A program made the translations under genes and the position numbers. DNA of 64,000 nucleotides from a virus (taxonomy: Duplodnaviria > Heunggongvirae > Uroviricota > Caudoviricetes): IMG/VR virus record IMGVR_UViG_3300031088_000776. The stretch is one strand, 5' to 3'. The notes beneath the pieces were generated by a model. The model saw only the letters and a program-made list of their open reading frames with translations. It did no database searches and was not told the DNA's origin. Positions 3,000 to 59,885 of this stretch are shown piece by piece (the stretch's first letter is position 1; each line of letters begins with the position of its first letter).

Positions 3000-3392
3000 T
3001 TACAGATCCATTTCAGAATCAATAGTGTAGTAGACCTTCTTGATTCCTGCTTCTCGAAGTGAATTCTGGCATCGGTCGCAAGGCTTACTCATTACAGGGT
3101 CACCACACTTCGAAACGCGGGCCACATAGATAACAGCTCCATTAAGATCTGCGCCGCGGGACGCCTTGATAGCTGCTACTTCAGCATGGATTCCCGCTCC
3201 AGTCTTAGGATCAGTGATCTGACGAGGATTGTTAACTTTGTAATTAACTCCTTGAGAAATGACATTGCCATTCTTAACAATGATAGCGCCATGCTGATGG
3301 CGATACTTAGAAGTTTTTGCTAATTGTAAAGCACGGTCTAGTAGATCCTTAGTTCGCGCGGACTGCGGAGCTCGGAACTTCAAATTCGACAT
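3000..3392 (-). CDS. deoxycytidylate (dCMP) deaminase
   Basis: Carries the HAEVAAI and PCDRC zinc-binding motifs of the CMP/dCMP deaminase family. GAAAGG lies 11 nt upstream of the ATG that starts MSNLKF. The longer ORF reaching 3437 is possible. Confidence 0.85.
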   Translation of the reverse strand: MSNLKFRAPQSARTKDLLDRALQLAKTSKYRHQHGAIIVKNGNVISQGVNYKVNNPRQITDPKTGAGIHAEVAAIKASRGADLNGAVIYVARVSKCGDPVMSKPCDRCQNSLREAGIKKVYYTIDSEMDL

Positions 3393-3538
3393 GTGCTTTA
3401 AGCCTTTCAAAAAATCAATATGTAACTCATTAATCATACAAAAAATTCTTAAATATTCAAAATTGCGAAAAGCAGTATTGAAAATTTCATTAAAACTTTC
3501 AAAAAATAGTTATATTTGATATAGTTCTAACAAACAAT

Positions 3539-3610
3539 GCTTTTGTGGGCTATAGGTAGGCCAGTTGACTCTAAATCAACCGTATGCGAGTTCGATTCTC
3601 GTCAAAAGCA
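3539..3610 (+). tRNA. tRNA with anticodon CUA (amber suppressor, tRNA-Sup)
   Basis: Hand-folded cloverleaf. Acceptor stem GCTTTTG/CAAAAGC, U8, D-stem GGCT/GGCC with A14 and G18G19. Anticodon stem GTTGA/TCAAC around the loop C-T-CTA-A-A, with U33 and A37. 5-nt variable loop. T-stem GCGAG/CTCGT with a TTCGATT loop. Discriminator A. No encoded CCA. Confidence 0.85.
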
Positions 3611-3868
3611 CTTTAAAAACTTTTTAAATACACTCTAAAACGAAAGGTGATTCAAAAATGACCTAGGTACTTTTGACTCATAATTCACTTTATTTCAAGC
3701 GGGCTTGCTTACTGCATGCTCGCTTATTCAGCATGCTCTGTCGATTAAGAATATAAGATATGTGCGAATGCATAGTCAAAAAACATCGCGTAAAAAGACT
3801 TAAACATATAAACGCACATCTAACTATACCAGAAAACAATCTTAATCAATAGTACAGGAGTACTAATC

Positions 3869-4991: not shown

Positions 4992-5402
4992 TTGATTGAA
5001 ATGACTGTTGAAGCTATCGCTAATATGCGTCTCGATAAAATCCGCTTGAAGAAAATTATTCAAAGACTTAATGAAGAGTTAGGCCCGGGGCTTGTTTCAA
5101 GGGCGGCTTCAGATAAGGGTTACTTCATGTCTATTGAGTGGTGCTCATATGGAGCTGGCCATGCTGAGCCTACTGCTACTGAAGAGGTTAAAATTTTAGC
5201 CTTAGCAACAACTTGGGAGGCACTTTCCCGATTCGGTTCCTCTAATGCTTTAGATTGGCTACAAAATAGCAATTCTCTTCTTGACAGTGAGAGTCCTATT
5301 GAAGTTTTGAGTAAAGGGCACTTCGAGGATTTTGATAATGCATTTGAAGCTCAACTCAATGAGATTCGAGATGTAAGATTAAAGCGAGGATTTGCCGCTT
5401 AG
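4992..5402 (+). CDS. hypothetical protein
   Basis: ORF ending in a tandem TAG TAG, followed by a terminator. Confidence 0.5.
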   Translation: MIEMTVEAIANMRLDKIRLKKIIQRLNEELGPGLVSRAASDKGYFMSIEWCSYGAGHAEPTATEEVKILALATTWEALSRFGSSNALDWLQNSNSLLDSESPIEVLSKGHFEDFDNAFEAQLNEIRDVRLKRGFAA

Positions 5403-5417
5403 TAGTATTTTTATTTC

Positions 5418-5457
5418 AAAGAGGGTTGAAGGTATCAATATGCTTTCAACCCTCTTT
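5418..5457 (+). terminator. intrinsic terminator
   Basis: aaagagggttgaa ... ttcaaccctcttt. Confidence 0.7.
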
Positions 5458-5587
5458 AAGCATAAACATCAACTATCGGCAACAATTAGAGTAAAGTTTG
5501 TTTAATCTATTAACTGATTCTTGTTGATTTTAAGAAATCTCAAAGACCTCCTTTTAGAAAAAGTTTAAACATTATGGGGGTTTAAAA

Positions 5588-6679
5588 GTGAAGTATCATG
5601 TTAACGATGAAGGTCGAGTTCTTGTTTGCAAGGCTGATGTTCGAAGCTGTAACTTCGGTGAAGAAGAAGGCGGTATTGGCCACTATCCTAACCCTAAAGA
5701 CGCTGAGAAAGCATATGAGCGTCATATGCAATCAAAAATTTTCGCGAATGTTTCACGTCATCCTGAAATTCGTTACGAAGCTCCTTTAGAGTCTGCTAGT
5801 TATCATGAAAAAGTCCTTAGAGACTGCTATGACCGAAACAAAGAAATGTCGCAAATACAGCTGGCTAAACATTATAACTATGTTAGCGATACTATTTCAG
5901 AGCTTTATAAAAAAGGGATGACTACTGAAAAGACTCACGCTAGAGAAACTAAAGCTGGCCTAGCATTTAATGATGAAAGAGTCAAGGCTCATACTGAAAT
6001 CATTAATGAATTTATCGAAAAATATAAAGAAGTTCCTGAAAATGGTGAGGCTTTGTTCGCTGGCGGTCTCGGCGGGGCAGGCAAGTCTACAGTTCTAGGG
6101 CAATACGCTGGAATTGATCAATCGAAGTACGTAACCTTAAACCCCGATGATATTAAAGAGATTATGGCTGAGAAAGGATTGATCCCTAAAGTTAAGGGTC
6201 TGACTCCAATGGAGGCATCTCCTTTAGTCCATGAAGAGGCATCGCATATTACTGCTATAATCTTTGAAAAGATTCGTCAAAAGAAAAAGAATATTATCTT
6301 CGATATAACAATGTCTAGTCTTGGTTCAGTACAAAATAGAATACTTCATCTTAAGAAAGCAGGATATACTAAAGTTAGTGGTGTTTTTGTGGATATTACT
6401 CCAGAGACTTCGCATGAGAGAGGCGAGTATCGCTACCGTCAAGGTCTTCAGGATTATCTGAAAAATAAAAACGGCCACGGTGGGAGATTCTTACCGGGTA
6501 ATATTACAAGTGGTTTAAAGACAGATGAAGATAGTCAATTTAAATCTAAGAATGCTGAAAACTTTGTGAATCTTGCTAAACTTGGCGGTTTCACGCATAT
6601 GCCTCGAGTTTTTAATAATAATGTTTTTGGTCGTGACCCACAAGAAATAAGCTTTAAGAAGTTCGTTAAAGGTGAGTAG
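5588..6679 (+). CDS. N-module family protein with a C-terminal P-loop kinase (zeta-toxin/AAA_33-like)
   Basis: N-terminus MKYHVNDEGRVLVCKADVRSCNFG..GHY..AEKAYE carries the shared module. The C-terminal domain has the Walker A motif GGLGGAGKST. Confidence 0.5.
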   Translation: MKYHVNDEGRVLVCKADVRSCNFGEEEGGIGHYPNPKDAEKAYERHMQSKIFANVSRHPEIRYEAPLESASYHEKVLRDCYDRNKEMSQIQLAKHYNYVSDTISELYKKGMTTEKTHARETKAGLAFNDERVKAHTEIINEFIEKYKEVPENGEALFAGGLGGAGKSTVLGQYAGIDQSKYVTLNPDDIKEIMAEKGLIPKVKGLTPMEASPLVHEEASHITAIIFEKIRQKKKNIIFDITMSSLGSVQNRILHLKKAGYTKVSGVFVDITPETSHERGEYRYRQGLQDYLKNKNGHGGRFLPGNITSGLKTDEDSQFKSKNAENFVNLAKLGGFTHMPRVFNNNVFGRDPQEISFKKFVKGE

Positions 6680-6761
6680 ATCTTAGTAGTTAGTTTAATG
6701 TCTTAAAATTTGATTATTAGAAGAATTGCGATATAGTAGTTAATGACGAAAGGATTTAATA

Positions 6762-6986
6762 ATGGAAACTACTCTTAAAGAACTCTTTGAAAAGTACTCG
6801 AACGGTGAATTGACTCTTGCGGAAATTAAGCCTCAACTTGCTAATGTTGCTTGGCCTGAAAAGAAGACTGAATCCGGAGAAACTTGGTATGAGGGCAATC
6901 AGGATAATACTGTTGCTGGAGTTCAGGCGACTCTTGAGACGCGCCGCGATCGGCGTAAGTTTGAAGAATTTCTCGCTATCATTTAA
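6762..6986 (+). CDS. hypothetical small protein
   Basis: 74-aa ORF. Confidence 0.4.
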   Translation: METTLKELFEKYSNGELTLAEIKPQLANVAWPEKKTESGETWYEGNQDNTVAGVQATLETRRDRRKFEEFLAII

Positions 6987-7006
6987 GCTATAAGTTTAGA
7001 ATTAAC

Positions 7007-7046
7007 TAAAGGGTTGAACCAACATTTTAATGGTTCAACCCTTTAG
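7007..7046. terminator. bidirectional terminator hairpin
   Basis: taaagggttgaacc ... ggttcaaccctttag, lying between convergent genes. Confidence 0.7.
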
Positions 7047-7068
7047 AGGCTTAAGATTATTGTATGTT

Positions 7069-7434
7069 CTATTCTTGCTTACCAACGAGATAGTCACCTG
7101 CAAATACACGAATAGTCTTGAAGTATCTTTTCATAGATTTCTCAATAGTATCCCCACCAACATTGTTAGAGGTATGCACAATGACTTCTTGAATATTTGG
7201 TGAGTTATCGAAAAAGCATAATTCTTCTATCTTGCTCAATACTGGAATAGTTGAATCTTTTTCTCCTTCAGGGGTTAATCCAAGATCATGATCAAACCAT
7301 AGTTGTTCAATGATAGTATTAGAATCAATAGAGTTGAGCCACTCTAGAGCTTCAGCGCTCGATCTCAGCACAATTGTGTCTTCCTTTTCGAATTTCTTCA
7401 GAAAACTTCTTTCATCGTCAATAAGAACAATCAT
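7069..7434 (-). CDS. CheY-like receiver (REC) domain protein, stand-alone
   Basis: MIVLIDDE (acidic pocket), WFDHDLG (candidate phospho-acceptor Asp), IVHTSN (Thr) and a later Lys follow the spacing of a REC domain. Confidence 0.4.
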   Translation of the reverse strand: MIVLIDDERSFLKKFEKEDTIVLRSSAEALEWLNSIDSNTIIEQLWFDHDLGLTPEGEKDSTIPVLSKIEELCFFDNSPNIQEVIVHTSNNVGGDTIEKSMKRYFKTIRVFAGDYLVGKQE

Positions 7435-7607
7435 TTTAATCCTTTTAAAATACTGAGATATTTTTCATCTTAAACTAACTATATCATACTGTTAATAAGA
7501 AGTCTTTATTTCTAGTCGATATGAACCTTTAACTTACTGTAATTGAATTTATTTTTCATTTTAGAAAATGTGCTATTTAGTTGAACTCAATACATTTGGA
7601 GCTATAA

Positions 7608-8381
7608 ATGACTAGATACCATATTAACGATGCGGGTAATCCTGGGCAGTGTGAAGCGAAGATCAAGTGCCGCTTTGGTGATTTAGAGACTGAGCATTAC
7701 GGATCGCGAGAAGAAGCTGCACAAGCCTATGAAGAGAAGCAAGAAAAGGAGATTCAAGAAGCGCGGAAAGCCTTAGACACTCTTAATAAACTTGAAGGTG
7801 TTAGCAGAAGTTTAACTAAAAACTCAGATAGACTTAGACAAAAGATTGAAGCTACAGAGAAGATCGTTAAAGTTGCGTCTAACGAGGGGAATTTAGATTC
7901 TTTCGAGAAGCATTATAATGAATTAAAAAAGCTTGAAGCAGAACGTAAAGAAGTTGAGACGAAACGAAAAGAAGTTGCTTCAATAATCTCTAAAAAAGAA
8001 GAGTTACAGAAATCAAGCTCACAAAAGACAACAGCTGCTCAACTACGAATTGCTGAAGATAAAACACTAGAGACTCGAGCTAAACTAATTAAAGATAAAT
8101 CAAAGTTGCAGGCTGCTGAAAAGAAGTTTAACTCAAAAATAGCCTCTAGGGCTGATATAAGCGAGCTGAAGCCACTTATGGAAGAACTTAAAATATTACA
8201 AGATCAAGTTGAACAATCTAACTCAGACTGGAAGAAGGCTACCTCTGAACTTTCAAAACTTAAGAAAGCGGAGCCAAAACGAAAGAAAAGCAATCCAGAA
8301 GTAAAGACGCTTAAGAAGTCTTCTCGAAGTGAAGATTACTACAATTATAATTGTGGTGGATACGGATCTGGTCGATGCTAA
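7608..8381 (+). CDS. N-module family protein with a Lys-rich coiled-coil C-terminus
   Basis: N-terminus MTRYHINDAGNPGQCEAKIKCRFG..EHY..AAQAYE. The remainder is a coiled coil that ends CGGYGSGRC. Confidence 0.5.
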   Translation: MTRYHINDAGNPGQCEAKIKCRFGDLETEHYGSREEAAQAYEEKQEKEIQEARKALDTLNKLEGVSRSLTKNSDRLRQKIEATEKIVKVASNEGNLDSFEKHYNELKKLEAERKEVETKRKEVASIISKKEELQKSSSQKTTAAQLRIAEDKTLETRAKLIKDKSKLQAAEKKFNSKIASRADISELKPLMEELKILQDQVEQSNSDWKKATSELSKLKKAEPKRKKSNPEVKTLKKSSRSEDYYNYNCGGYGSGRC

Positions 8382-9043
8382 AGTTAATAGGTATCTCAGG
8401 TAAACCAGGTAGTGAAAAGATGGTTTACGCTTTCAAAATCATTCAAGAATTAAGATTCCACGGTTATAAAACTCATCTAGTTTCTCTAGCTGAACCACTA
8501 TATAAAGAATTCAATGAGATTGCTGACCAAATAAAGATATATGGACAGGATGCTGATTATATAGTAAAGAACTATAGTCTAGAGGCTAAAGGGCTTGAAC
8601 TCTATAAGCTTCTTAAAGAGAATAATCTAGGTGAGAAAAGTCCAGTTTACGGATACTCTAGAAGGAATGAGTTTGTGCGTAAGGGATTAAGTATGCTTGG
8701 TAGTGAAATACGTAGAGAACAAGACCCTGATTACTTTATTAAGAAACTTACTAAAAACCTTCCGGAAGGCGATTTTGGAGTTCTGATTGATTTGAGATAT
8801 CCTAATGAAGCAGACTTCATTAATGACAATGATGGAATAGTGTTGAGAGCCTTAAGAGACTTTGAAAGTGAACACGGTGGATATAAGTATCAGCAAGGCA
8901 TGAATGACCCTACTGAAACTTCATTAGATGATTACGAAAATTTCTTAGATTATCTTGAATATGATAGTTTTGATAGAGTTAGCTTTGCAAAGAATCTTCT
9001 AAAAATGTATGATTTAGATACTAAGGAAGAAACTGTAAGATAG
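8375..9043 (+). CDS. dNMP kinase-like P-loop kinase (T4 gp1-like), paralog 1
   Basis: ISGKPGSEK P-loop, GSEIRREQDPDYFIKK and DLRYPNE, co-linear with the 10150 paralog. ATG at 8375 overlaps the upstream stop. Confidence 0.6.
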   Translation: MLKLIGISGKPGSEKMVYAFKIIQELRFHGYKTHLVSLAEPLYKEFNEIADQIKIYGQDADYIVKNYSLEAKGLELYKLLKENNLGEKSPVYGYSRRNEFVRKGLSMLGSEIRREQDPDYFIKKLTKNLPEGDFGVLIDLRYPNEADFINDNDGIVLRALRDFESEHGGYKYQQGMNDPTETSLDDYENFLDYLEYDSFDRVSFAKNLLKMYDLDTKEETVR

Positions 9044-9065
9044 TCTTTAATGCTTAATAAATAAT

Positions 9066-9105
9066 TTAAGGGTGGATAGCCTAGAATATTGCTATCCACC
9101 CTTAA
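9066..9105. terminator. bidirectional terminator hairpin
   Basis: ttaagggtggatagc ... gctatccacccttaa. Confidence 0.7.
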
Positions 9106-10149: not shown

Positions 10150-10929
10150 GTGGGATTGAACGCAATTGAATTGTCAGAGAAATACGATTTAGACAGAACT
10201 TTAGTAGAGAGAGCATATTCTAATATTAAAGAAAAGAAAGTCGTATTCTTTGCTATTTCTGGAAAGATCGGTGCGGGGAAAGATTCAGTTGCGCCGCGTA
10301 TTCTAGAGGCTATGAATATTCGGTCAAATGATTGTGAGCATGAGTTTTTCGCTCGGCCTCTTAAGACTGAGGTTACACAATTAGTTAATATTTGCAGATA
10401 CTCTGGAGCTTTTGAAGAAGCTGTTGAAAGAACTATTAAAGAATTAAGTGTTAAGCCTGAAAGAGCAAAAGAAGCTGTCACACTTCTTTATCGTGATGTT
10501 AAGCAAGGTGAGGTCACTAGCGGTTATGATCGCACACCTTCAGTCCGTTTAGCCTTGCAGCATTGGGGTACTGAGGTTCGCCGTGAGCAAGACGATCTTT
10601 ACTGGGTGAAAAAAGCCTTGAAGAATACTATTGAAAAACTTGCTGAAGGAAAGAACGTATATATTACTGACACTCGATTCCCTAATGAGAATGATTCAAT
10701 TATCGATTCAACTGGGATTACTATTAGATTATTAGTCTCCCCAGAAGAGCAAATAAGACGAATCCAGTCCCGTGATGGAATCGAAGTTACTGAATCTTCA
10801 AGGAATCATATTTCTGAAACAGCGCTTGATGACTATACCGATTTTGACATTACTGTCGATACGGATGAGAATAGTATTGAAGAAGTTGTTGGAATTATTA
10901 AAGGAAGTGAAGTATGGCAGAGAAACTAA
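10150..10929 (+). CDS. deoxynucleoside monophosphate kinase (T4 gp1-like), paralog 2
   Basis: ISGKIGAGKDS P-loop. VRLALQHWGTEVRREQDDLYWVKK and YITDTRFPNEND match T4 gp1 (SGVKRSGKDT, VRRLMQALGTDL..MYWVK, YIVPDTRQDHE). Confidence 0.7.
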   Translation: MGLNAIELSEKYDLDRTLVERAYSNIKEKKVVFFAISGKIGAGKDSVAPRILEAMNIRSNDCEHEFFARPLKTEVTQLVNICRYSGAFEEAVERTIKELSVKPERAKEAVTLLYRDVKQGEVTSGYDRTPSVRLALQHWGTEVRREQDDLYWVKKALKNTIEKLAEGKNVYITDTRFPNENDSIIDSTGITIRLLVSPEEQIRRIQSRDGIEVTESSRNHISETALDDYTDFDITVDTDENSIEEVVGIIKGSEVWQRN

Positions 10930-11486
10930 TTCAACTTGCTATTGATCTAGACGAGGTAGTCTTTGATTATGTTGGCGGAGTTCGAGAGTATGGCAAGACT
11001 AAAGGTGTTATTTTGCCTGATAGCGAGCCTTCGCATTTCTCTATGACGGAATCTGGATGGTTTAAGACTATGAGTGACTTCCATGAATTTCATAGAGGGG
11101 CTGTAGTTGACAATATTTACCAGAATCTAAAGGTTATCGAGGGAGCTTCTGAAACTCTTCATGAACTTTCAGATTCAGGGTATGGGATTAATATCCTAAC
11201 TTCTCGCTTCGTTCTTCCGCGTCAGCATAATCTTGTTGTCACTCAGACTGTTAATGCTCTAGATATGTTTGACATCCCATATTCAAATATTACCTTTAGT
11301 AATGAGAAGTGGCGCCATAAGTATGATGCATATTTTGAGGATGCTCCGCATAATCTTATCCCTTTGCAAGAACATGGTCTTTATACTGTAACTTTTGATC
11401 GACTTTGGAATAGAGATGTTCCTGGTGATCGAGCAAGAGGTTGGAGCGAATTCCGTGAAGTTCTTAAGGGAAAGTTCGGGAAGTAA
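10914..11486 (+). CDS. HAD-family 5'(3')-deoxyribonucleotidase-like
   Basis: The N-terminal AIDLDEVVFDY is a DxDxV motif typical of the NT5C-type HAD nucleotidases. Confidence 0.5.
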   Translation: MAEKLIQLAIDLDEVVFDYVGGVREYGKTKGVILPDSEPSHFSMTESGWFKTMSDFHEFHRGAVVDNIYQNLKVIEGASETLHELSDSGYGINILTSRFVLPRQHNLVVTQTVNALDMFDIPYSNITFSNEKWRHKYDAYFEDAPHNLIPLQEHGLYTVTFDRLWNRDVPGDRARGWSEFREVLKGKFGK

Positions 11487-11666: not shown

Positions 11667-12575
11667 TTGCTTTTTCTTACTGTAGTAATTGGCCTCTTGT
11701 TCATTGTAGGAATCGGAGCAATGTTTATCAAGGGTATTCGAGGGTATGGAGCCGGCGCTCTCATTCTATCTTTACTTATTGTTGGTTTTATGTCAGCAAC
11801 TCAAGTCGGCGCAAAAACGGTTGGTGTTATTACATCATTCGGTAAGATTTCTGAACGCACGCTTACTCCTGGTTTAAGTATGATTGCACCGTGGGAGAAG
11901 GTCATTAAGGTTGATGGAACTATTCAGTCGCTCAGTTTTGATGAGGGTAATCCAATTAAGGCTAAGATTGCTGATGGTTCTGAGGTAGGAGTCCGCGGTA
12001 AGGTTCGCTGGGAAATTGTTCCTGCAAAGGCTAATGAGCTTTATGGTTCCTTCCGAGATTCTGACCCTACTGCAAAGTTCAGTTCTGACGTTGTGATGCC
12101 TACTCTACAGGCTAAGGTTCAGGAGTCACTTGAGAATTATAACCCTATTGCTCAGGTAAAAGCTGGTGACGCTGATCAGTCATTCAACCCTGACTACGCT
12201 AAGATGTCTGAAGATATTAAAAATTCAGTAAATGAAGAGCTCGCTAAGAAGGGTCTTGGCCAGATCGAAAGCGTTGTTATCTCATATGTCTCTCTATCGG
12301 AACAGACTCAGTCTAAGCTAAACGATTTTGTTTCAGCAACTGGTGAGACTCGAATTGCTGAACAGCGTAAGGAAACAGCTCGGGCTCAGGCAGAGGCTAA
12401 CAAGATTCTATCCAACTCTGTAAGCAATAACCCTAACGTTCTTGTTTCCCGTTGCATGGATACTGTTGCTGATGCTGTTGAAAAGAATTATGCTCTACCT
12501 GCAGGCTTCTCATGCTGGTCAGGTGGCGGCTCTGTAGTCATCCCTGGTGCTAACTCTAATTCTAATTCTCAGTAA
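11667..12575 (+). CDS. SPFH/band-7-like membrane protein
   Basis: Two N-terminal TM helices. VGVITSFGKISERTLTPGLSMIAPWEKV resembles the start of an SPFH domain. AAGGAG RBS upstream. Confidence 0.4.
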   Translation: MLFLTVVIGLLFIVGIGAMFIKGIRGYGAGALILSLLIVGFMSATQVGAKTVGVITSFGKISERTLTPGLSMIAPWEKVIKVDGTIQSLSFDEGNPIKAKIADGSEVGVRGKVRWEIVPAKANELYGSFRDSDPTAKFSSDVVMPTLQAKVQESLENYNPIAQVKAGDADQSFNPDYAKMSEDIKNSVNEELAKKGLGQIESVVISYVSLSEQTQSKLNDFVSATGETRIAEQRKETARAQAEANKILSNSVSNNPNVLVSRCMDTVADAVEKNYALPAGFSCWSGGGSVVIPGANSNSNSQ

Positions 12576-12678: not shown

Positions 12679-14052
12679 TTAATCTTCCTCTCCCTTCTCA
12701 ATTCTTGCGGCTTTCATCATTGCCATGAATTGATTTTTAACTCCTTGTTTTTCCCAAAAGTCCTTAATCTCGTTTCTTTGCTCTCCAGTAGTTGATTCGT
12801 CGCGGAAATCCTTAACACTAGCCCTTAAATCAGCAACTCTATCTTTTTTAGTTTGTTCCTTAGGCCATTGATATTCCCCAACTTCTTTGCGGTGAGTTTT
12901 GAAAATTGTTCGAAGATCTTTAAGGTCTTCATTCATAGCCTTACGATTATAGTCTTTACCAGTTTTAGCTCTAACGTTTTCCTCCATTCGGTCTCCAACA
13001 ACATCTAGAAGAGCTTTAGAGTTTAATTGGTAATTATCTTTTGTAGTATGGAAATTACGCCCTGGATTTTTAGGGTCAACAATTACCTTAGCGGTTGCCC
13101 AGTCTTTATACGGATTGTTGGCTGTATTCTCCCAATGCCCGTCAGAAATCTGCCCTTTAAGCTCATCTTCGAGCAACCATTTCTGCGCTTGAGTTCTAAC
13201 TCTAATAGTGTTGCCTTCGTCAGGAATCATGTGACCGAGACCGGCTTCTTCAAGCTCTGTCTGCTTATTCTCAACTTTTTTAATACTGTCTATCAATCGA
13301 CTACGAGCGCGTTCTTCACTTGCTTTATGCTTTTCAAGTCTCTCGACTAAATCAAATCCTTTACCTCTCGGATCAGAACCTGGAATCTTCTCTACTTTAT
13401 CAGTTTCTTTGTTGTAGCCGTAGTGATAGATACGACCTTCTTCTTCAGCATGTAGTTCATCATACTTCTTATGTCTCGAGATCATCTCGTTCAATTCGAG
13501 CCTTGCATAATTCTTATTTATAGCAGCAGTGTTCAATCCTTCAACCATAACCCTCTGCTTAGGTGTAGAGGTAATATTAGCTACGTAAGCGGGGATTTGT
13601 TGGATTGAATCTAGAGAGTCTTTCTCTTTTGCGTCAACATTACTCTCTACAGAGGCACCGTCTTCACGCTTCCAAGCCCCGTAACCTGCGCGAAGTTTTT
13701 CAGCAGTTGCAGATGTAGAAAGTTCCTTGCCTCCCTTGAAGGCTCGAACACTACCGTCTGGTTGAATCTCAATAACCTTACCCTGCGGATGCACATAACG
13801 CTCGACTTTAGAAGCGACTTCATATGCCCCACTAGTTAGAACACCGTTATTTGCTGAAGTAGGTTTATCATTAGTCTTTCTAGATTTCTTCATTGGTTTT
13901 TGAACTGTTTGTGAAGCCATTGAGAGTTCATATGCCTGCTGAGCTATCTCAGGTGACGAATAATGCTGTGCATCTCCACCAAATTTGCAATCACGAATTT
14001 CTGCAGTGCAGACTCCCGGGACTCCCTCATCGTTAACATGATATTTAGCCAT
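12679..14052 (-). CDS. N-module family protein (457 aa), C-terminal domain unknown
   Basis: N-terminus MAKYHVNDEGVPGVCTAEIRDCKFG..QHY..AQQAYE. Confidence 0.55.
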   Translation of the reverse strand: MAKYHVNDEGVPGVCTAEIRDCKFGGDAQHYSSPEIAQQAYELSMASQTVQKPMKKSRKTNDKPTSANNGVLTSGAYEVASKVERYVHPQGKVIEIQPDGSVRAFKGGKELSTSATAEKLRAGYGAWKREDGASVESNVDAKEKDSLDSIQQIPAYVANITSTPKQRVMVEGLNTAAINKNYARLELNEMISRHKKYDELHAEEEGRIYHYGYNKETDKVEKIPGSDPRGKGFDLVERLEKHKASEERARSRLIDSIKKVENKQTELEEAGLGHMIPDEGNTIRVRTQAQKWLLEDELKGQISDGHWENTANNPYKDWATAKVIVDPKNPGRNFHTTKDNYQLNSKALLDVVGDRMEENVRAKTGKDYNRKAMNEDLKDLRTIFKTHRKEVGEYQWPKEQTKKDRVADLRASVKDFRDESTTGEQRNEIKDFWEKQGVKNQFMAMMKAARIEKGEED

Positions 14053-22080: not shown

Positions 22081-23373
22081 GTGTCCAAAAAAGATACTAA
22101 CGAGATTTTAGATGAGAATCAGCAGTCGCTTGAAGAAACTAGTAATGATTCAGTAAGTGAGCTACCAACAGAAGCTATAGAAAACTTCAAGTACTTCGAA
22201 AAAGGACCTAAACGCCCTAAACAGCTAAAAGAATCAAGTGATGAGCACATTTACTACCACTATGAGTTATTTACTGGATGGACTGATGAAGAAATTGAAG
22301 AAGCCAATCGCAAAGAGCGAGAAGAATCGGAAAAGGCTCTAGAGCAAATCAAGGCGGATGGTTTCATTGAATTTCCAATATGGTTCGAAAATGTAGATGG
22401 GGAGACTGTAGAGCGTTCAGCTTGGATACCACCTAATTTTGAACCTAGCTGTAGCGAAGGATTCCGTGAAAAATACGGAATGAACTATAATATCTATATT
22501 CCCTCATACGAGCGTTACGACAAAGCACTTACAATGAAGATGCTTGATCGCCTAGGCGTTAAGAATTACTACATTGCAGTTGACCCTACTCAATATGAGA
22601 AGTACAAAGCAGTCTTCGGTCCCGATAAAATTATTATTAGAGACATCTATTTTAAAGATACTGACATGCTTGACATGGCTACTTCAATTAAGTCTCCAAA
22701 TACTATGCACGGTACCGCAGGTATCTACAACTTCTTACTATCTTTCAGTAGATCTATCGGTGAAGAAAAATACTGGACTATGGACGATGACTTCTTAGGT
22801 ATGGCAATGAAAGCACATAAGGGTTCCGAAATTTGGAATCCCTCAGTTAAGCCTTATAATAAAGAAGATTTCTATCGTTGCTCTAACATTAAGTCAGAGT
22901 ATGGATTCAGTCAAGCGGAGTTCCTATGTTCTATGGAGGATCTTTCGAATAAGATGCGTAATCCAGGGTTCGTAGGTCTAGAGAAATTCGGAATCGTTTT
23001 TACACTTCCAGTAGTTTGGAAACTTGGAACAAGAGTCTACTCATTCTACCTTTCAGACAATAAGACTCAGATTAACCACTTTGGGGGAAACAACAATGAT
23101 GTAGTGACGAGTTTAGAGTTAAGCAAGCGCGGTCTAGTGAATATGCTCTTTGAAGGGATTTCTTATAATAGTGAACCAACCCAAGGGGGAGGCGGACTTA
23201 CAACATCATACAGAAGGTTCGGGACTTTACAAAAGGGTAAGATATTAGTTCGCGCAGTGCCTAACTTCTCAAAAATCTCCTACAATTATAGCAGAATCCA
23301 TCACTTCGTAGACTACAATGGCTACAACCGCCAGCGTATCGTTGGCGCTGTAAAACCTGAAGAAGAGAAGTAA
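22081..23373 (+). CDS. hypothetical protein, possible GT-A-like glycosyltransferase
   Basis: Acidic N-terminus. YWTMDDDF is a DxD-like motif. No strong motif evidence. Confidence 0.25.
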   Translation: MSKKDTNEILDENQQSLEETSNDSVSELPTEAIENFKYFEKGPKRPKQLKESSDEHIYYHYELFTGWTDEEIEEANRKEREESEKALEQIKADGFIEFPIWFENVDGETVERSAWIPPNFEPSCSEGFREKYGMNYNIYIPSYERYDKALTMKMLDRLGVKNYYIAVDPTQYEKYKAVFGPDKIIIRDIYFKDTDMLDMATSIKSPNTMHGTAGIYNFLLSFSRSIGEEKYWTMDDDFLGMAMKAHKGSEIWNPSVKPYNKEDFYRCSNIKSEYGFSQAEFLCSMEDLSNKMRNPGFVGLEKFGIVFTLPVVWKLGTRVYSFYLSDNKTQINHFGGNNNDVVTSLELSKRGLVNMLFEGISYNSEPTQGGGGLTTSYRRFGTLQKGKILVRAVPNFSKISYNYSRIHHFVDYNGYNRQRIVGAVKPEEEK

Positions 23374-25531: not shown

Positions 25532-25671
25532 ACATATTAAAATCTTTGTTTTTGAAAGTCTATAATTTCTTGTTACAATTATTTTAGTGCGTTGCTTCTT
25601 ACTGCACTATAAAAACTAAGGAGCTGGTGGCGACCCTGATAATCAAAAAAATTTTGAAAGGTTGCAAAATA

Positions 25672-26724
25672 ATGAGAAAGCTAGTAACAGTAAAGACTAT
25701 CGACCAGATTACACCAATCCCAGATGCTGATCGCATCGAGGTAGCGAGAATTGATGGTTGGAATGTAGTCGTTGGTAAGGATCAGCATCATGTTGGAGAA
25801 AAGGTCGCTTTCTTCGAGATCGACTCTTTCCTTCGTGAAGATCTTCCAAGGTTCGAGCAGTTTCAGTCACGTGGTCAGAAGGCCATGGAGGTTGAAGGTG
25901 TAGAGCTTAGAGGCCATGTTCTTAAGACTATTAAGCTTCGAGGCGTATACTCTCAAGGGCTTATTATGAGCCTTGAAGCTGTTGGGTTCAATCCAAGCGA
26001 AGTGGCTGAACTTACTGAAGGTACGGACATTACTAATATTGCCGGCGCGTTAAAGTGGGAGCCTCCGCTTCCTACCTCTGTTGAAATCATTGGTGAGTTT
26101 GATACTCGTCACTCTCCGAAGACTGATGCAGTTCGATTACAAAACATTGTTGATCTGTGGGATGAGATTCGAGAAATTGACTGGACTCCTACAGTAAAGG
26201 TTGACGGAACATCCCAGACATTTGCTAACTTTGACGGTAAAATTCGTGTCTTTGGTAGAAATTGGGAACTCGATCCAGAAACTTCAGTAGGCCTTAAGCT
26301 CGCTCGTGAGAATGGTATTTTTGAAGATCTTGAAGAAATGGGTAATAGCTCTGTAATTCAGGCAGAGCTAGTCGGTCCAGGTATTCAGGCTAACTCTTTG
26401 AAGCTTCCAGGTAAGAGACTTATTGTTTTCTCTGTTTGGAGGAATGGAGTTAAGCTTGAGCGTAGCGAGTGGCCTGCTTCTGCATTGAAGCATTCGACTC
26501 CTATTCTAGGTGACGAATATCTTCCAAAGAACTTTGAAAGCGCTGAAGGTCTTATTGATTTTGTCAACGGTCTTAAGGGGAGCGTTAGCAAGAATGTTAA
26601 AGATGAGGGTGTGGTTTACCATCCAGTGAACCCATCTTCAGTACCTCTAGAGTTAGTGAATAGCCTTGATCGCAATCTTAACTTTAAGGTTATTTCAAAC
26701 GCTTGGCTTTTAAAGAATTCATAA
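25672..26724 (+). CDS. ATP-dependent RNA ligase (N-terminal OB-like domain plus nucleotidyltransferase)
   Basis: Motif I KVDGTS in TVKVDGTSQTF and motif IV EGVV in KDEGVVYHP, with a Lys-containing C-terminus. GAAAGG RBS lies before the ATG at 25672. Confidence 0.55.
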   Translation: MRKLVTVKTIDQITPIPDADRIEVARIDGWNVVVGKDQHHVGEKVAFFEIDSFLREDLPRFEQFQSRGQKAMEVEGVELRGHVLKTIKLRGVYSQGLIMSLEAVGFNPSEVAELTEGTDITNIAGALKWEPPLPTSVEIIGEFDTRHSPKTDAVRLQNIVDLWDEIREIDWTPTVKVDGTSQTFANFDGKIRVFGRNWELDPETSVGLKLARENGIFEDLEEMGNSSVIQAELVGPGIQANSLKLPGKRLIVFSVWRNGVKLERSEWPASALKHSTPILGDEYLPKNFESAEGLIDFVNGLKGSVSKNVKDEGVVYHPVNPSSVPLELVNSLDRNLNFKVISNAWLLKNS

Positions 26725-29705: not shown

Positions 29706-30815
29706 TTGTCAAAAAATATTTCTACTAACTCAGAGCGCCAAGAACAATTCAATCAGCTTATTAAGAGTATTAACAAGCATAAGACTTTCACGACTGAGTC
29801 TGGCGATAATGTAATCTCTAAATTAGGCGATAATCCTCGAGAGATTGAAGTTATCTCTTCAGGAAGTTTGGTGCTTGATAGTATCCTCGGTGGAGGTCTC
29901 CCTAAGGGGCGTATTGTTGAAATTTACGGCCCTGAGTCTTCAGGTAAGACTTCAGTTGCTCTTACTGTTGCTGGTAATGTCCAGGCAAATGGTGGTAACG
30001 CTGCCCTTATCGACCTTGAGAACGCACTTGACCCATCTTACGCTAAAAAACTTGGTGTAGATATTGAGAATCTTGCTGTTTCACAGCCGGATGACGCTGA
30101 GCAAGCCCTTGATCTTCTTGTTGCTTTATGCTCATCACAATTAGTTGATCTTGTGATTGTTGACTCTCTAGCAGCATTAACTCCAAGAGCTGTACTTGAT
30201 GGAACTGCAGAACAGCAGACTATTGGTCTTGTTGCTCGCCTTCTTTCAACAAACTTGAAGAAAATCATTTCTCTAGCCAATAAGAATGGTGTTACTGTCA
30301 TTCTTATTAACCAGATTCGTGATAAGATTGGCGGCTTCTCTCCAGTCGGTACTCCAGAAACGACAACTGGTGGTCGCGCAACCAAATTCTATGCTTCACA
30401 GCGCATCGACATTCGTCGCCGCGAGATTGTTAAAGAGGGCAAGAAAGAAATTGGTACCCTCGTCCGAATGAAAGTAGTAAAGAACAAGGTTGCTCCACCT
30501 TTCCGTGAAGGCTTCACTGTTCTAACTTTCAATCATGGAATTAACCGTCAGGCAGAGATGATTGAGGTCGGGCCAGAAGCTGGAGTCGTTGGTCGCCCTA
30601 ATAACCGAACTTATGTTGAAGTTGAGACTGGCGAGATTATTGCTAAGTCTAAGGCTGACGCTATTGCTCGACTTGAGAGTGACCCTGAAATGTTCGAAAG
30701 ACTCTCTAAGGCTCTCGCTGACGCATTAAAGAATAAAGACGCTAAGGTTGATGAAACTGAGGCGCCGAAAGAAAATGATGATGCTGAAGAAGTCGAATCT
30801 AAAGATGATGAGTAA
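29706..30815 (+). CDS. recA: RecA recombinase (bacterial type)
   Basis: GGGLPKGRIVEIYGPESSGKTS, IDLENALDP, VDLVIVDSLAALTP and INQIRDKIG...PETTTGG match the E. coli RecA core almost residue for residue. Acidic C-terminal tail. AAGGAG RBS plus TTG start. Confidence 0.9.
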   Translation: MSKNISTNSERQEQFNQLIKSINKHKTFTTESGDNVISKLGDNPREIEVISSGSLVLDSILGGGLPKGRIVEIYGPESSGKTSVALTVAGNVQANGGNAALIDLENALDPSYAKKLGVDIENLAVSQPDDAEQALDLLVALCSSQLVDLVIVDSLAALTPRAVLDGTAEQQTIGLVARLLSTNLKKIISLANKNGVTVILINQIRDKIGGFSPVGTPETTTGGRATKFYASQRIDIRRREIVKEGKKEIGTLVRMKVVKNKVAPPFREGFTVLTFNHGINRQAEMIEVGPEAGVVGRPNNRTYVEVETGEIIAKSKADAIARLESDPEMFERLSKALADALKNKDAKVDETEAPKENDDAEEVESKDDE

Positions 30816-37159: not shown

Positions 37160-39499
37160 TTGTCTAAAAGAAGTAGAAGAAAAGAAGCAGAAGAAGAGTC
37201 ATTCATTGACTTCTTCTCAGATAAAGCTCTCGTAGTTGAAGAATATAAAGAAAAGAAAACTTTCAGCAAAAACCTTAAAGCAGTTGCTGGCTTTCTTTCA
37301 CTATCAGTAATTCTCGGTTTAATCGTGACTATATACCCTATCATGGGGTTAAGTGCAGCGGCTAAGGTTGCTGAACCAATTGCTAAATATTGGAAAGACC
37401 TACCTTCAGAACTTGGCGAGACTTCAATCGCTGAAAGAAACGTTCTTTATGATAAGAATGGTAATATATTTGCGGAGGTTTGGGCTGAAGACCGCGTTCA
37501 GCTAAACTCCTTAGATGAAATTAGCGATTATGCTAAAAATGGTCTTATTGCGACTGAAGATAAGAGGTTCTATGAGCATGCTGGAATTGACTTCATAGGT
37601 ACGGCTCGATCAGCAATTTCGGGCTCAGGTGGCGGTTCAGGCATCACTCAGCAGCTTATCAAAAACTTGCAATTCTATGATCAAGCAGGTAAGGAAAAGA
37701 AAGCTGATGCGATTGAGCATTCATTATCAAGAAAGCTACAAGAATTAAAATACTCTATGGAGTACGAGAAGAGTCATTCTAAAGATGAAATACTTCTTGA
37801 ATATTTCAATACAGTAGCTTTTGGTGGCCCTAATACATATTCTATTGAAGCCGCTTCCCAATACTTCTTCGGAAAATCTGCTAAAAAGTTAGACCTTGCT
37901 GAGGCTTCAGCTCTCATTGGCACGGCAAACAATCCAGTTCTATTTAACCTTAAGCATACTGACGATGATGCACGGTGGAAAGACAGGCAGAAAGCTGTTC
38001 TAGATCGGATGGTAGCTGAAGGGCACATTACATCTGAAGAAGCTAAAAAGGCTGCAAAACAAAAACTTAAAATAGTCTTAAAAAAGTCACGTGGTAATTG
38101 TACTTCAAGCGAATATCCTTTTTACTGTGAGTATGTTATTGATTATTTAACCGACTCTGAAAAACTTGGTGAAGCTGCTGAGGAACGCGCTGCAGTTATC
38201 GCTAAGGGCGGTCTTCACATTAAGACTCATATGGACCCCGCTGCAATGGATCAAATTGATAAGAAACTTGAAGCAGAATTTGGGAACAACAATAGAGTTG
38301 TAGCACCTGTCGCCTTAGTCGAAGCTGGAACAGGCGGAGTCACTGCATTTGGTGTTAATAGAGATTACGGTGAAGGAAAAGGTAAGACTGTAATCAATGT
38401 TGCTAATAATCCCGCAGCAACGGGTTCAGCATATAAGGTATTCACTCTAGCAGCTGCTTTAAATTCTGGAAGAACAGAGTCTAGCTTAACTTTTGATGCA
38501 CCGTGTGTTTTTGCTCCTCAGGGTTATGATTATCCTAATAGCGGTTTTAAGAACTCTCAAGGTTGCGGTAAGCAGGCCGGTGTTCTAAACTATCAGCAAG
38601 CAACGGCTTACTCTTCTAACACTTGGTATACTAAATTAGCCACACAAATTGGATTAGATAAAGTTTACGACATTAGTCGGCAGTTGAATCTTAATGTCCC
38701 TGAAAACCTAACTAATAGAAGTCTTTCATTTGTTCTAGGTCCTGTTGAGAACTCTCCTATTGACATGGCAGCGGCATATGCTACATTTACTAATAAGGGA
38801 GTCTTCTGTCCAGCAACGCCCATTGAAGAATACCATTATTCTGATGGATCAGTTCCTGCGGTACCAGATACATACAGACCTGAAGATGATTCTTGTAAGC
38901 GTGTAACTTCACCAGCTACAGCTAGTACTGTATTAAAGGCTATGCGAGCAAATACTTATGGCGATGGAATTCCTGGTGCTTTTGGTACTCAAGGTCGAAT
39001 TAGTGGTTATGACTCTGTAGGTAAGTCTGGTACTAACCAGAGATATAATTACACTCAGGGTCAAGTCTCCGCTGATTATGGATTCTTTATTGACATTTAC
39101 GATATGGATAAAGTAAATAGAGGGGTTTATCAGAATAGTTATTATAGAGGTCAATTATGGCCTTACAACTACTCCGCTAAAGCGACTTCTTCAATCTTTG
39201 GGTCAGTTTTGAAAATGGGTAAGAATAAGAGTCTAGATTTCAACAATAAAGACACTTCATTCACTCCAGTGGAAATTGAAAAGAGAGATTATTTTACGAT
39301 TCCTTCAGTTCTTGGTATGACTGCTGAACAAGCAATGGATGCTATGTCTTCTATTGGCATACCCGTCTACGTCAGTAAGGAAACTGTAAAGGCTGATGGA
39401 CAATTCCCTGTCGGGGTCATTGGTGAGCAATCAATTTCCCCAGGCGAGGAGTTACCAGTTGGCACTAAGAAAGAAATTGTTCTTTACATAACTGAATAG
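37160..39499 (+). CDS. class A penicillin-binding protein (GT51 transglycosylase plus transpeptidase) with a C-terminal PASTA domain
   Basis: N-terminal TM helix. GT51 motif IATEDKRFYEHAGIDF. Transpeptidase motifs GSAYK (SxxK), SSN (SxN) and KSG. The C-terminal segment IPSVLGMTAEQAMDAMSSIGIPVYV is PASTA-like. Confidence 0.8.
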   Translation: MSKRSRRKEAEEESFIDFFSDKALVVEEYKEKKTFSKNLKAVAGFLSLSVILGLIVTIYPIMGLSAAAKVAEPIAKYWKDLPSELGETSIAERNVLYDKNGNIFAEVWAEDRVQLNSLDEISDYAKNGLIATEDKRFYEHAGIDFIGTARSAISGSGGGSGITQQLIKNLQFYDQAGKEKKADAIEHSLSRKLQELKYSMEYEKSHSKDEILLEYFNTVAFGGPNTYSIEAASQYFFGKSAKKLDLAEASALIGTANNPVLFNLKHTDDDARWKDRQKAVLDRMVAEGHITSEEAKKAAKQKLKIVLKKSRGNCTSSEYPFYCEYVIDYLTDSEKLGEAAEERAAVIAKGGLHIKTHMDPAAMDQIDKKLEAEFGNNNRVVAPVALVEAGTGGVTAFGVNRDYGEGKGKTVINVANNPAATGSAYKVFTLAAALNSGRTESSLTFDAPCVFAPQGYDYPNSGFKNSQGCGKQAGVLNYQQATAYSSNTWYTKLATQIGLDKVYDISRQLNLNVPENLTNRSLSFVLGPVENSPIDMAAAYATFTNKGVFCPATPIEEYHYSDGSVPAVPDTYRPEDDSCKRVTSPATASTVLKAMRANTYGDGIPGAFGTQGRISGYDSVGKSGTNQRYNYTQGQVSADYGFFIDIYDMDKVNRGVYQNSYYRGQLWPYNYSAKATSSIFGSVLKMGKNKSLDFNNKDTSFTPVEIEKRDYFTIPSVLGMTAEQAMDAMSSIGIPVYVSKETVKADGQFPVGVIGEQSISPGEELPVGTKKEIVLYITE

Positions 39500-40241: not shown

Positions 40242-41486
40242 ATGAAACTAACACTTGATTCAAAGGCTTTTGTTGAAGCAGTAGCCTGGGTTACTAAAAA
40301 TTACGACGCTAAAGACACTAAAGCATATGTGTCACTTTCTGTAGCGGAAGACGGAAAAGCTATCGTCTCACATGAAAGCCGTAGCTCATACATTCAAACT
40401 GAACTAGCCTTGATTAACACTGATTTCACAGGTGATTCTGTAAATAAAGCTGATCTCGCACTTGATGGTCGATTCCTTCAGCGTCTTTCAGGGGCCTTGA
40501 GTGGCACTTCAGGCGAGATCGTTCTTTCAAAGAAGCTTGATGATAATAAGACCGTAGATGATATGGATGACTTTGAAGACGAAGATTCACATGAGGAGAT
40601 TGTAGGCAAGAGTACTCCGCTACAAGTCAAGACTAGCTCAGGTACATTCACTGTGCCAGTATTCCACGCTGCACCTTCAAAGCAGCCGAAAATTGTCGAA
40701 TTTGGTGAAGTTCTAGAAGTTGAGCTATTCGATTCACTTCAGCGCGTAGCAAAACTGACTGACGTAGCTAATGCTAGCGTTCTTCCGGCTCTGGGATGTG
40801 TAGACATTAGACTGTCTGCTGAGGATGAAACTCTCTCAATGATGACTACAGACCGATTTGCTATGAGTGAGATTACTCTTGATTTTGCGCCGACTGATAA
40901 TGGAGAGCTAGAAAACCATAACATTGATATTCTGCTTCCTTATGATAGTGCTATCACTGTTCCAGCATCTAAAAATACTGGTGATTCAGTAAAGGTCGTT
41001 TACGCGCCTAAGACAAAGAAATTCGGCTTCTCTTTCACCGATGGTCGAATTGCACTATTCTCTCTTGAAAGCGCAGATCCGCTAGAATACAAGCCACTCA
41101 TCGAACACGCTAACGAAACTGTTGAGCATTCAATGATTGTCTCAACTAACGATCTTAAGAAAGCAGTTGCTAACGTATCTAATCTTTCTTGGGAAGAAAA
41201 TATGATTTGGATGAATATTTCTGAATCAGGTGATCTTACGGTTACAGATCAGCATCAGACTAACGTTCAGAAAGTTGAAGGTACTGACGCTGAAATTGAG
41301 GGTGACTTCAGAGTTTCTTTCAACCGTGCAGTACTAAACAAGGCATTTAGCCCAATTAGCACTTCACGAGTTCAGCTCCGCTGGTTGAATGAATCAAAGC
41401 AATTCTGCTTTAGCTTAGTTCTTGATGATGACACAATTGCTGATAATGTATTTATTCTAGTACAGCCTTCAGTAGAAAACGACTAA
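40242..41486 (+). CDS. DNA polymerase sliding clamp (beta-clamp-like)
   Basis: The N-terminus MKLTLDSKAFVEAVAWVTK...LSVAEDGKAIVSHESRSSYIQTEL follows the DnaN pattern of MKFtveR..L...vs, ....L.L..dg.l.l.gtD.e. Confidence 0.45.
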   Translation: MKLTLDSKAFVEAVAWVTKNYDAKDTKAYVSLSVAEDGKAIVSHESRSSYIQTELALINTDFTGDSVNKADLALDGRFLQRLSGALSGTSGEIVLSKKLDDNKTVDDMDDFEDEDSHEEIVGKSTPLQVKTSSGTFTVPVFHAAPSKQPKIVEFGEVLEVELFDSLQRVAKLTDVANASVLPALGCVDIRLSAEDETLSMMTTDRFAMSEITLDFAPTDNGELENHNIDILLPYDSAITVPASKNTGDSVKVVYAPKTKKFGFSFTDGRIALFSLESADPLEYKPLIEHANETVEHSMIVSTNDLKKAVANVSNLSWEENMIWMNISESGDLTVTDQHQTNVQKVEGTDAEIEGDFRVSFNRAVLNKAFSPISTSRVQLRWLNESKQFCFSLVLDDDTIADNVFILVQPSVEND

Positions 41487-43157: not shown

Positions 43158-43226
43158 TCTAGAATTATTTGGTAAGATTGTAGTGAACAAAAAAATGTAA
43201 GCTTTTTGAAAGACGGGGTTTTATTT

Positions 43227-59511: not shown

Positions 59512-59885
59512 TTGTTCTCCTCCAAGATAGTAAATGTTCTTAAACATCCTATATGAAGAATTTAAAAGTTGCAAATCATTAATCAGAACTCTGTAAAGAA
59601 GACATTCTTAATAGTTTTATCTTCTACGTATTGCCTTAAAGAGTAAAACGCGAGGTAAAGATCATCTAAACAGCAAAAACGCTATCAATTAAAATTCAGT
59701 ATTCAGTTGCTATAGAAACGAAGAACTGATTTTAGAAAACTTTTTAAAAATTTTTAGAATTTTCATATTCAGGCTGTATCTCAGATGGTATATTGATTTT
59801 GCTCAATTCGATATTATTCCAAATTTTTAGTGCGGTGGCTCGCAAGGTCGCTAAACAAAGACTGTTTTAGCATAAGGAGTTTGTC

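Follow-up and report, generated by a model that had tools for sequence, protein, structure and literature searches.

Why would a very large phage carry a kinase that resembles the zeta toxins? Zeta-type kinases have been known as toxins encoded by plasmids and chromosomes and, in the case of AvrRxo1, as an effector of a plant pathogen; a role for such kinases in phages has hitherto been proposed from domain surveys only. The question is raised by a 64,000-nucleotide (nt) stretch of viral DNA (IMG/VR record IMGVR_UViG_3300031088_000776, Caudoviricetes), which was analyzed as a whole and is called the window below. A gene at 5588..6679 (+; GTG start, TAG stop) encodes a 363-amino acid (aa) protein in which a short N-terminal domain, here termed the N-module, precedes a zeta/AvrRxo1-like kinase domain. 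We propose, with a probability of a little over 60%, that this kinase and the 74-aa product of the next open reading frame (ORF) constitute a two-gene toxin-immunity-type effector cassette of a huge phage, the kinase being a phosphotransferase of the zeta/AvrRxo1 clade. The downstream partner gene is the most informative feature of the locus and was missing from an earlier, sequence-only reading of this DNA.

According to this proposal, the kinase would phosphorylate a hydroxyl of an abundant nucleotide-containing host metabolite and so harm the cell. The substrate would be nicotinamide adenine dinucleotide (NAD+) or nicotinic acid adenine dinucleotide phosphate (NAADP), as for AvrRxo1, or a uridine diphosphate (UDP)-sugar, as for zeta, recognized without the canonical motif that binds UDP-N-acetylglucosamine (UNAG). 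The 74-aa protein would bind the kinase and neutralize it, and might double as its chaperone, much as ARC1 serves AvrRxo1. In this way the kinase would be active only at a particular time or in a particular compartment, such as in a short burst at the start of infection while the partner is still scarce, and a kinase that arrives with the virion would do its work before the injected genome has given rise to any partner. For the phage, the pair may serve host takeover or counter-defence. The N-module, with its His-Cys-Cys-His (HCCH) pattern, would be a separate, probably zinc-binding adaptor for targeting or for nucleic-acid or protein binding, common to three other proteins of the window including an ADP-ribosyltransferase.

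The partner gene (6762..6986, +), putatively encoding an immunity- or antitoxin-like inhibitor or a chaperone of the kinase, starts 83 nt 3' of the kinase gene. BLASTP identified homologues at the same position in three related loci: in L006 with 66% identity, in L007 with 38% identity (E=5e-13) beside a kinase 53% identical to that of the window, and in L005 with 32% identity (E=1e-6) beside a kinase with a different N-terminus. Co-occurrence was scored over 70 viral loci from IMG/VR and 80 loci from GTDB genomes, all encoding relatives of the kinase, by searching every ORF of the fetched loci with the small protein in jackhmmer. In these loci the close kinase subfamily, delimited by a hidden Markov model (HMM) E-value below 1e-60, is represented by 94 non-identical kinases from phages and Actinomycetota, and 76 of them have a partner homologue of 74-130 aa directly downstream on the same strand. 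A sensitive re-scan added five further loci with a partner, bringing the total to at least 81 of 94, and a weak candidate in L030. The association also holds in reverse, with 99 of 103 partner matches adjoining a kinase. The viral loci also encode 36 zeta-like kinases that are more distantly related, and none of these has a partner beside it. In many loci the stop codon of the kinase and the start codon of the partner overlap by 4 nt, and three loci (L003, L008 and L010) contain tandem duplicate partners. Word-indexed searches were too coarse for queries this short, yielding three matches for the partner and one for the N-module profile.

Both genes of the cassette are under strong purifying selection. 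Comparison of the kinase with its 83%-identical orthologue in L006 gave a dN/dS of 0.045, which argues that the ORF is a functional gene and not a chance reading frame. The partner matches no Pfam family and contains no detectable DNA-binding domain; its predicted model, built from a three-sequence alignment with a predicted local distance difference test (pLDDT) of 91.3, resembles no fold in the PDB. An alternative candidate for an antitoxin, the 136-aa ORF upstream of the cassette (4992-5402, +), was rejected as it is conserved in the close relative L006 only (60% identity); it has no Pfam or other family match. By eye, its C-terminal half (ALDWLQNSNSLLDSESPIEVL...) may resemble the toxin-binding domain (DUF2384) of Xre-type antitoxins. 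No cognate epsilon or PezA antitoxin was found upstream of the kinase.

The kinase gene itself is preceded by a GGGGG ribosome-binding site about 9 nt 5' of its GTG start, and a protein identical to its product is predicted on a 697,643-bp metagenome contig from the JGI. Behind the N-module, a helical extension of the kinase domain (aa 62-150; 5771..6037, +) is apparent from the predicted model and the alignment, with helices at 70-82, 89-108 and 129-145 modelled at pLDDT above 90 and an arginine, R131, that is invariant in 54 homologues. The domain that follows matches Pfam Zeta_toxin (PF06414) over aa 151-305 (E=6.6e-17, 62 bits against a cut-off of 22.3) and, more weakly, AAA_33 (3.5e-7). 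A family profile built from the 54 homologues (alignment A1) ranked PezT first in the PDB (2e-5), followed by the RNA-repair kinase Pnkp1 (0.011) and Zeta (0.56), at identities of 14-17%; this family profile was required, since single-sequence phmmer of the kinase against the PDB returned noise only. The window kinase has the zeta-type phosphotransferase fold. Ranked lower, after a clear step down, are the C. thermocellum Pnkp kinase (11.9), gonococcal zeta_1 (10.9), PSTK (10.2), Pnkp1 (9.5), T4 Pnk (9.1) and adenylate and uridylate kinases (8.5 or less). The sequence-only reading, which had proposed a zeta-toxin-like P-loop kinase and had named housekeeping kinases as the matches that would speak against it, is borne out on this point: toxin-family kinases head both the profile matches and the fold matches.

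The kinase has no meaningful match in NCBIfam, a PADLOC scan for defence systems matched neither it nor its N-module paralogues, and megablast of positions 5000-9100 against cultured phages found nothing. By tblastn, the only matches among cultured phages are Phrappuccino and Settecandela, at 30% identity, and GTDB species genomes contain no close relative, the best identity being about 43%. In PHROGs, an internal segment of the 1,440-position profile PHROG 16619, annotated as a minor head protein, matches the kinase at 1e-8.

Is the enzyme likely to be active, and on what? The Walker A motif GGLGGAGKST, noted in the sequence-only reading, lies in the C-terminal domain at aa 159-168 (6062..6091, +), where it aligns with zeta G39-T47; G160-S167 fits the consensus GXXGXGK[ST], with an invariant lysine at position 166. 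Equivalences to other residues were taken from the HMMER alignment of the family profile to Zeta (1gvn_B). In this alignment K166 corresponds to the P-loop lysine K46 of zeta, and D187, in an NPDD motif (6146..6148, +), to zeta D67 and PezT Asp66, making it the predicted catalytic base that deprotonates the substrate hydroxyl. D239 corresponds to E116, the acidic residue preceding the GTXR motif, T241 to T118, a part of GTXR, and R282 to the lid arginine R158. The role of zeta Asp67 and the definition of GTXR as the UNAG-binding motif are those of PMC6362051. The residues invariant in the 54 homologues are R131, G159, G160, G163, G165, K166, D187, K190, P200, H215, E217, N235, D239, Y260, R282, R300 and N344, and T241 is conserved in at least 90% of them. 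As judged from these alignments, the catalytic set of Lys166, Asp187, Asp239 and Arg282 is complete, and the kinase is very probably active as an ATP-dependent phosphotransferase.

At the site of zeta Glu116 and GTXR, the kinase reads Asp239-Ile-Thr241-Met-Ser243 (6302..6316, +), retaining the acidic residue and the threonine alone, with I240-T241-M242-S243 in the position of zeta GTXR (G117-T121); zeta Glu100 is replaced by Ala223 and is not conserved. Since the GTXR motif is absent, the substrate is probably something other than UNAG as classically bound. AvrRxo1, too, is devoid of the UNAG motif, and its substrate is NAD (PMC5087710; see also PMC5491322). A conserved, family-specific block at aa 204-219 (G-L-T-P-M-E-A-S-P-L-V-H-E-E-A-S), together with R131 and N344, provides candidate residues of the substrate pocket.

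Elsewhere, the kinase domain occurs in varied company. It is carried by proteins that begin with Portal_Mu (L027, 2,120 aa; L018, 1,364 aa) or Phage_portal (L011, 1,264 aa), lies inside giant proteins of 2,055-2,435 aa (L014, L025) and is combined with DNA_pol3_beta_2 and DUF3560 in a 2,313-aa polyvalent protein of Corynebacterium (L136). A cultured representative is gp57 (1,088 aa) of Mycobacterium phage Phrappuccino, whose C-terminal kinase matches the family HMM at 9e-66; its gene comes directly after the one for the major head protein, and the partner has a homologue in gp58 (90 aa; 3e-7). Among the GTDB loci, the cellular members of the subfamily are almost confined to Actinomycetota and are mostly of 345-560 aa, with a low-complexity N-terminus bearing a conserved L-P-x-G-H-P-S-S-P motif. 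One metagenome-assembled genome of Actinomycetota (L110, 5800-12689) encodes three consecutive kinase-partner pairs with overlapping start and stop codons. Other stand-alone kinases begin with modules of the form MCRAGKDKTRRYCP...RNARRR or with HPRD-x-x-GRF or NPWHDAKGRF motifs. A single toxin domain is thus found on N-termini as diverse as the HCCH N-module, MCRAGKD...RNARRR, the HPRD-GRF type, Portal_Mu, Phage_portal, giants of 2,000-2,400 aa and GHPSSP, and the small cognate immunity-like gene that accompanies polymorphic toxins is present directly downstream. This arrangement follows the grammar of polymorphic toxins and polyvalent proteins. The earlier suggestion of an effector that targets nucleotides or NAD, by phosphorylating UNAG or NAD, is strengthened as to the effector by the downstream gene and the portal and polyvalent fusions, and weakened as to UNAG by the missing GTXR motif.

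The N-module (aa 1-50; 5588..5737, +) is a putative zinc-binding unit with the spacing His4-9-Cys14-6-Cys21-10-His32, followed by a helix that ends in AYE. That it is shared, as the sequence-only reading had noticed, is upheld by four copies in the window, in ORFs 5588-6679 (+), 7608-8381 (+), 12679-14052 (-) and 61743-62813 (+). The second is a 257-aa coiled-coil protein ending in YYNYNCGGYGSGRC, the third a 457-aa protein with no family match, and the fourth the 356-aa ADP-ribosyltransferase paralogue that had also been noted, which matches ADPrib_exo_Tox at 3.6e-10. No partner-like ORF was detected beside these three genes. An exhaustive HMM search of 1.84 billion cluster representatives with a 47-position profile (A2) recovered 5,719 proteins at E<=1e-3, of which 1,428 reach E<=1e-10; in almost every case the match covers residues 1-47. 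The four residues His, Cys, Cys and His and two alanines are invariant among 148 diverse top matches, whose consensus reads M-x-K-Y-H-I-N-x-x-G-x-P-G-x-C-x-A-x-x-G-x-C-P-F-G-G-x-x-x-H-Y-x-S-x-E-x-A-R-x-A-Y-E. Because of this His-Cys-Cys-His pattern, the module is expected to bind zinc. The predicted model is a beta-hairpin followed by a helix (pLDDT 58-88). No Pfam family covers the module, it has no sequence match in the PDB, and tblastn of its consensus against cultured phages found none. Although it is almost always placed at the extreme N-terminus, it also occurs in tandem (P0125, P0126, P0155) and at the C-terminus (P0188, P0230), which indicates an autonomous small domain and not a cleavable signal. 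The C-terminal parts of N-module proteins are mostly unannotated, with isolated 2H-SAK, RNA ligase (RNA_lig_T4_1), HNH, GmrSD_C and ADP-ribosyltransferase domains.

Genes for N-module proteins cluster: the 64-kb window contains four, a 21-kb span of L001, which comes from a 727-kb contig, contains five, and multi-gene clusters recur in phage-looking genomes of 0.4-0.8 Mb. Related N-module proteins were found on contigs of 727, 740, 820 and 828 kb. Contigs in the range of 697,643 bp to 828 kb, if complete phage genomes, would be very large for phages. An unlikely elaboration is that the N-module is a general address tag by which huge phages load or direct an arsenal of enzymes, with the kinase not poisoning the cell wall but acting in counter-defence by phosphorylating NAD+, NAD-derived or cyclic-nucleotide immune signals and the 74-aa protein serving as a timer. 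Such an arsenal might include the kinase, the ADP-ribosyltransferase and, elsewhere, RNA ligases, 2H phosphoesterases and HNH nucleases.

The window derives from a very large phage and not from a cell. A small bacterial genome, like those of the candidate phyla radiation, was considered on account of genes for a penicillin-binding protein, RecG, DnaB and ClpB. It was rejected because RIIA (57112-59574, -), a UvsX-like recombinase (29706-30815), an RNA ligase (25627-26724; phrog_968, 6e-53), a sliding clamp (40242-41486) and a glucosyltransferase (22081-23373) match PHROGs, and also because close relatives of the kinase are absent from the GTDB genomes. DnaB, RecG and RNR genes are all present in the window, as are a complete class A penicillin-binding protein with transglycosylase, transpeptidase and PASTA domains (37160-39499, +) and a ClpB-like AAA+ protein (43206-45248, +). 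The PASTA domain, together with an Rpf-like DUF348-G5-transglycosylase protein in L001, hints at a Gram-positive host. A protein at 54118-55608 (+) contains four DUF4379 'treble clef zinc finger' repeats, and DUF4379 proteins are also encoded just upstream of the kinase in L005 (8506-9816) and near it in L001 (2738-5008), so that the association of DUF4379 with the kinase may be recurrent.

Genes related to RNA repair and to NAD or nucleotide metabolism surround the cassette. A Tpt1/KptA gene (1054-1581, 3.9e-38) is overlapped at its start by that of a YpsA SLOG protein (within 498-1581), and a gene for a cREC 'cyclic-phosphate processing receiver' protein (7069-7434, -; 2.5e-14) converges on the partner gene. 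Farther along are two paralogous dNMP-kinase-like genes (8351-9043 and 10150-10929; phrog_139, 7.6e-14 and 8.4e-29), followed by an NT5C 5'-nucleotidase (10914-11486) and a Band-7/SPFH protein (11667-12575), and a dCMP deaminase is encoded at 3000-3437 (-). The YpsA-Tpt1 pair and cREC are kept in the syntenic relative L006; at more distant kinase loci the partner is the only common neighbour. The NAD/ADP-ribose and RNA-repair character of these surroundings fits a NAD-targeting kinase and an RNA-repair kinase alike and decides for neither.

Two stem-loops bracket the cassette. One, GGGTTGAA-N14-TTCAACCC (5423..5452), has a stem of up to 13 bp and lies upstream; the other, GGGTTGAA-N15-TTCAACCC (7011..7041), has a 13-bp stem and lies between the partner and the convergent cREC gene. 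The hairpin pattern occurs exactly twice in the window, against an expectation of zero by chance, and neither copy has a run of T downstream. Their interpretation as the ends of a mobile element is unsupported, as hairpins at the corresponding positions of L006 are unrelated in sequence. A scan for promoters and terminators gave counts no higher than in shuffled sequence. The single tRNA called (3539-3611, +; ARAGORN, labelled tRNA-Pyl) has the anticodon CUA and would be of the amber-suppressor type. Among window ORFs of at least 150 aa, 39 end in TAA, 8 in TAG and 5 in TGA, and readthrough of the kinase TAG would append just 8 aa.

What else could the kinase and its partner be? A selfish type II toxin-antitoxin module, of the addiction or abortive-infection type, that is merely resident in the phage would have the same biochemistry and no effector role. 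The two-gene layout with short or overlapping junctions would suit such a module, as would the many Actinomycetota chromosomal copies free of virion proteins, including the three L110 tandem pairs. Zeta and PezT are moreover the toxins of classical toxin-antitoxin systems, and for many 'orphan' zeta toxins no antitoxin is recognized (PMC10532202). Yet the toxin comes first in gene order, and the partner has neither a detectable DNA-binding domain nor similarity to known antitoxins. Repeated fusions of the kinase to portal and giant head-module polyvalent proteins point to delivery in the virion, and an N-module common to the kinase, the ADP-ribosyltransferase and two more proteins suggests a coordinated set of effectors. 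We consider a selfish module unlikely, though the strongest of the alternatives and ahead of the address-tag elaboration above.

Less probable than both is a function in RNA repair, with the enzyme as a polynucleotide 5'-kinase that phosphorylates the 5'-OH termini left when host anticodon nucleases cleave tRNA or mRNA. The enzyme would then act in concert with the phage RNA ligase, the 2'-phosphotransferase Tpt1 and the cyclic-phosphate enzyme cREC, in the manner of T4 Pnk and Rnl. The Tpt1/KptA and cREC neighbours and the RNA ligase in the window invite this explanation, but Tpt1 and cREC accompany the kinase only in the close relative L006, and not in L001, L003, L005 or L007. The neighbour that is conserved is the small partner, an immunity-like protein of no obvious use to a repair kinase. 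In surveys from the Aravind group, phage RNA repair brings cREC together with kinases and ligases (PMC9503650, PMC7824862), and RNA_lig_T4_1 or 2H-SAK domains are found in other N-module proteins; a kinase that is fused to portal and polyvalent proteins and recurs as multi-copy pairs in Actinomycetota chromosomes is, however, unlike a repair enzyme. Nor does the AAA_33 match or the second place of Pnkp1 in the PDB search outweigh a fold ranking that contradicts this role and the lack of a fused or adjacent phosphatase or ligase domain. Far less probable than any of these is a DNA-modification kinase of the 5-hydroxymethyl-dU DNA kinase type, with a part in hypermodifying the thymidines of the phage DNA. 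No HMUDK match was obtained for the window protein at E<=1, and the weak HMUDK_HMUD1 match of a tandem-domain homologue, P0009 (1.4e-6, 28.4 bits against a cut-off of 27), is dwarfed by the Zeta_toxin score of the same protein, 117 bits. A window rich in nucleotide metabolism (dCMP deaminase, two dNMP kinases, NT5C, RNR and glucosyltransferase) would suit such a pathway, but no dUMP hydroxymethylase was seen nearby, and the partner, the portal fusions and the multi-copy chromosomal pairs do not fit DNA modification.

Several observations weigh against the effector cassette that we favour. Toxicity, neutralization and contact between kinase and partner are deduced from gene order alone, and the window kinase is unfused to any structural protein. 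Which class of substrate it uses is a guess, since neither the GTXR motif nor Glu100, the substrate-binding residues of zeta, is conserved. N-module kinases in L001/L002 and L105 have no detectable partner, and those in L030-L033 have a weak candidate only. In sequence and fold comparisons the partner resembles none of epsilon, PezA and ARC1, and for this reason it could be a cofactor or specificity subunit and not an inhibitor. Finally, the nearby Tpt1 and cREC genes, and the RNA ligase gene 19 kb away, would also fit a role in RNA repair.

The zeta/AvrRxo1-type kinase of phage polyvalent proteins was already known; the downstream partner family and the HCCH N-module appear to be new, and neither was found described in Pfam, PHROGs, NCBIfam, PADLOC or the literature searched. 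The locus defines a distinct kinase subfamily without the UNAG motif and so probably with a different substrate, and the conserved partner family may explain some Actinomycetota zeta toxins that are now deemed orphans. Because the cassette is present in the cultured phage Phrappuccino as gp57 and gp58, toxicity, neutralization, substrate and packaging are directly testable. The N-module, for its part, is a small unnamed domain that is very widespread in large uncultivated phages, and knowledge of its ligand would help to annotate thousands of hypothetical proteins.

How, then, does the cassette compare with systems already described? Like Zeta and PezT, the window kinase matches PF06414 and has the zeta-type fold, the Walker A motif and the catalytic aspartate. 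Unlike them, it reads I-T-M-S in place of GTXR, does not conserve Glu100, bears an additional helical extension of about 90 aa and the HCCH N-module, and is carried by a phage and not by a plasmid or chromosome. The gene order also differs from that of epsilon-zeta and PezAT, as the small partner lies downstream and not upstream and resembles neither epsilon nor PezA. With the polynucleotide 5'-kinases (T4 Pnk, C. thermocellum Pnkp and Pnkp1) it shares membership of the P-loop kinase superfamily, a Walker A motif followed by a catalytic aspartate, a weak sequence match of the family to Pnkp1 and the proximity of RNA-repair genes; its closest relatives lie elsewhere, and no end-healing phosphatase or ligase is fused or adjacent to it.

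Zeta-like kinases have been described in polyvalent proteins of phages and integrative and conjugative elements, with cell-wall precursors as proposed targets (Iyer et al. 2017, PMC5512222). As in polyvalent and MuF polymorphic toxins, members of the present subfamily form the C-terminal or an internal domain of portal-fused or giant proteins with an immunity-like gene next to them, whereas the window kinase stands alone behind a 50-aa HCCH module and not a portal or MuF domain. AvrRxo1 (XopAJ) resembles it in having a zeta-like fold without the UNAG motif and a kinase gene followed by a small gene for a putative neutralizing or chaperone protein. The window kinase has no match to the XopAJ/AvrRxo1 model NF041405 of NCBIfam at E<=0.1, and the homologue P0009 has a weak partial one (3.6e-6, 26 bits against a cut-off of 300). 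The partner does not resemble ARC1, and any delivery would be by the phage particle and not by type III secretion. In the AvrRxo1-ARC1 operon, the gene of the delivered kinase comes first and ARC1, encoded downstream, acts as antitoxin, repressor and secretion chaperone (bioRxiv 10.1101/2023.12.02.569727). By analogy, this operon is the closest functional precedent for the order of kinase and partner genes in the phage cassette.

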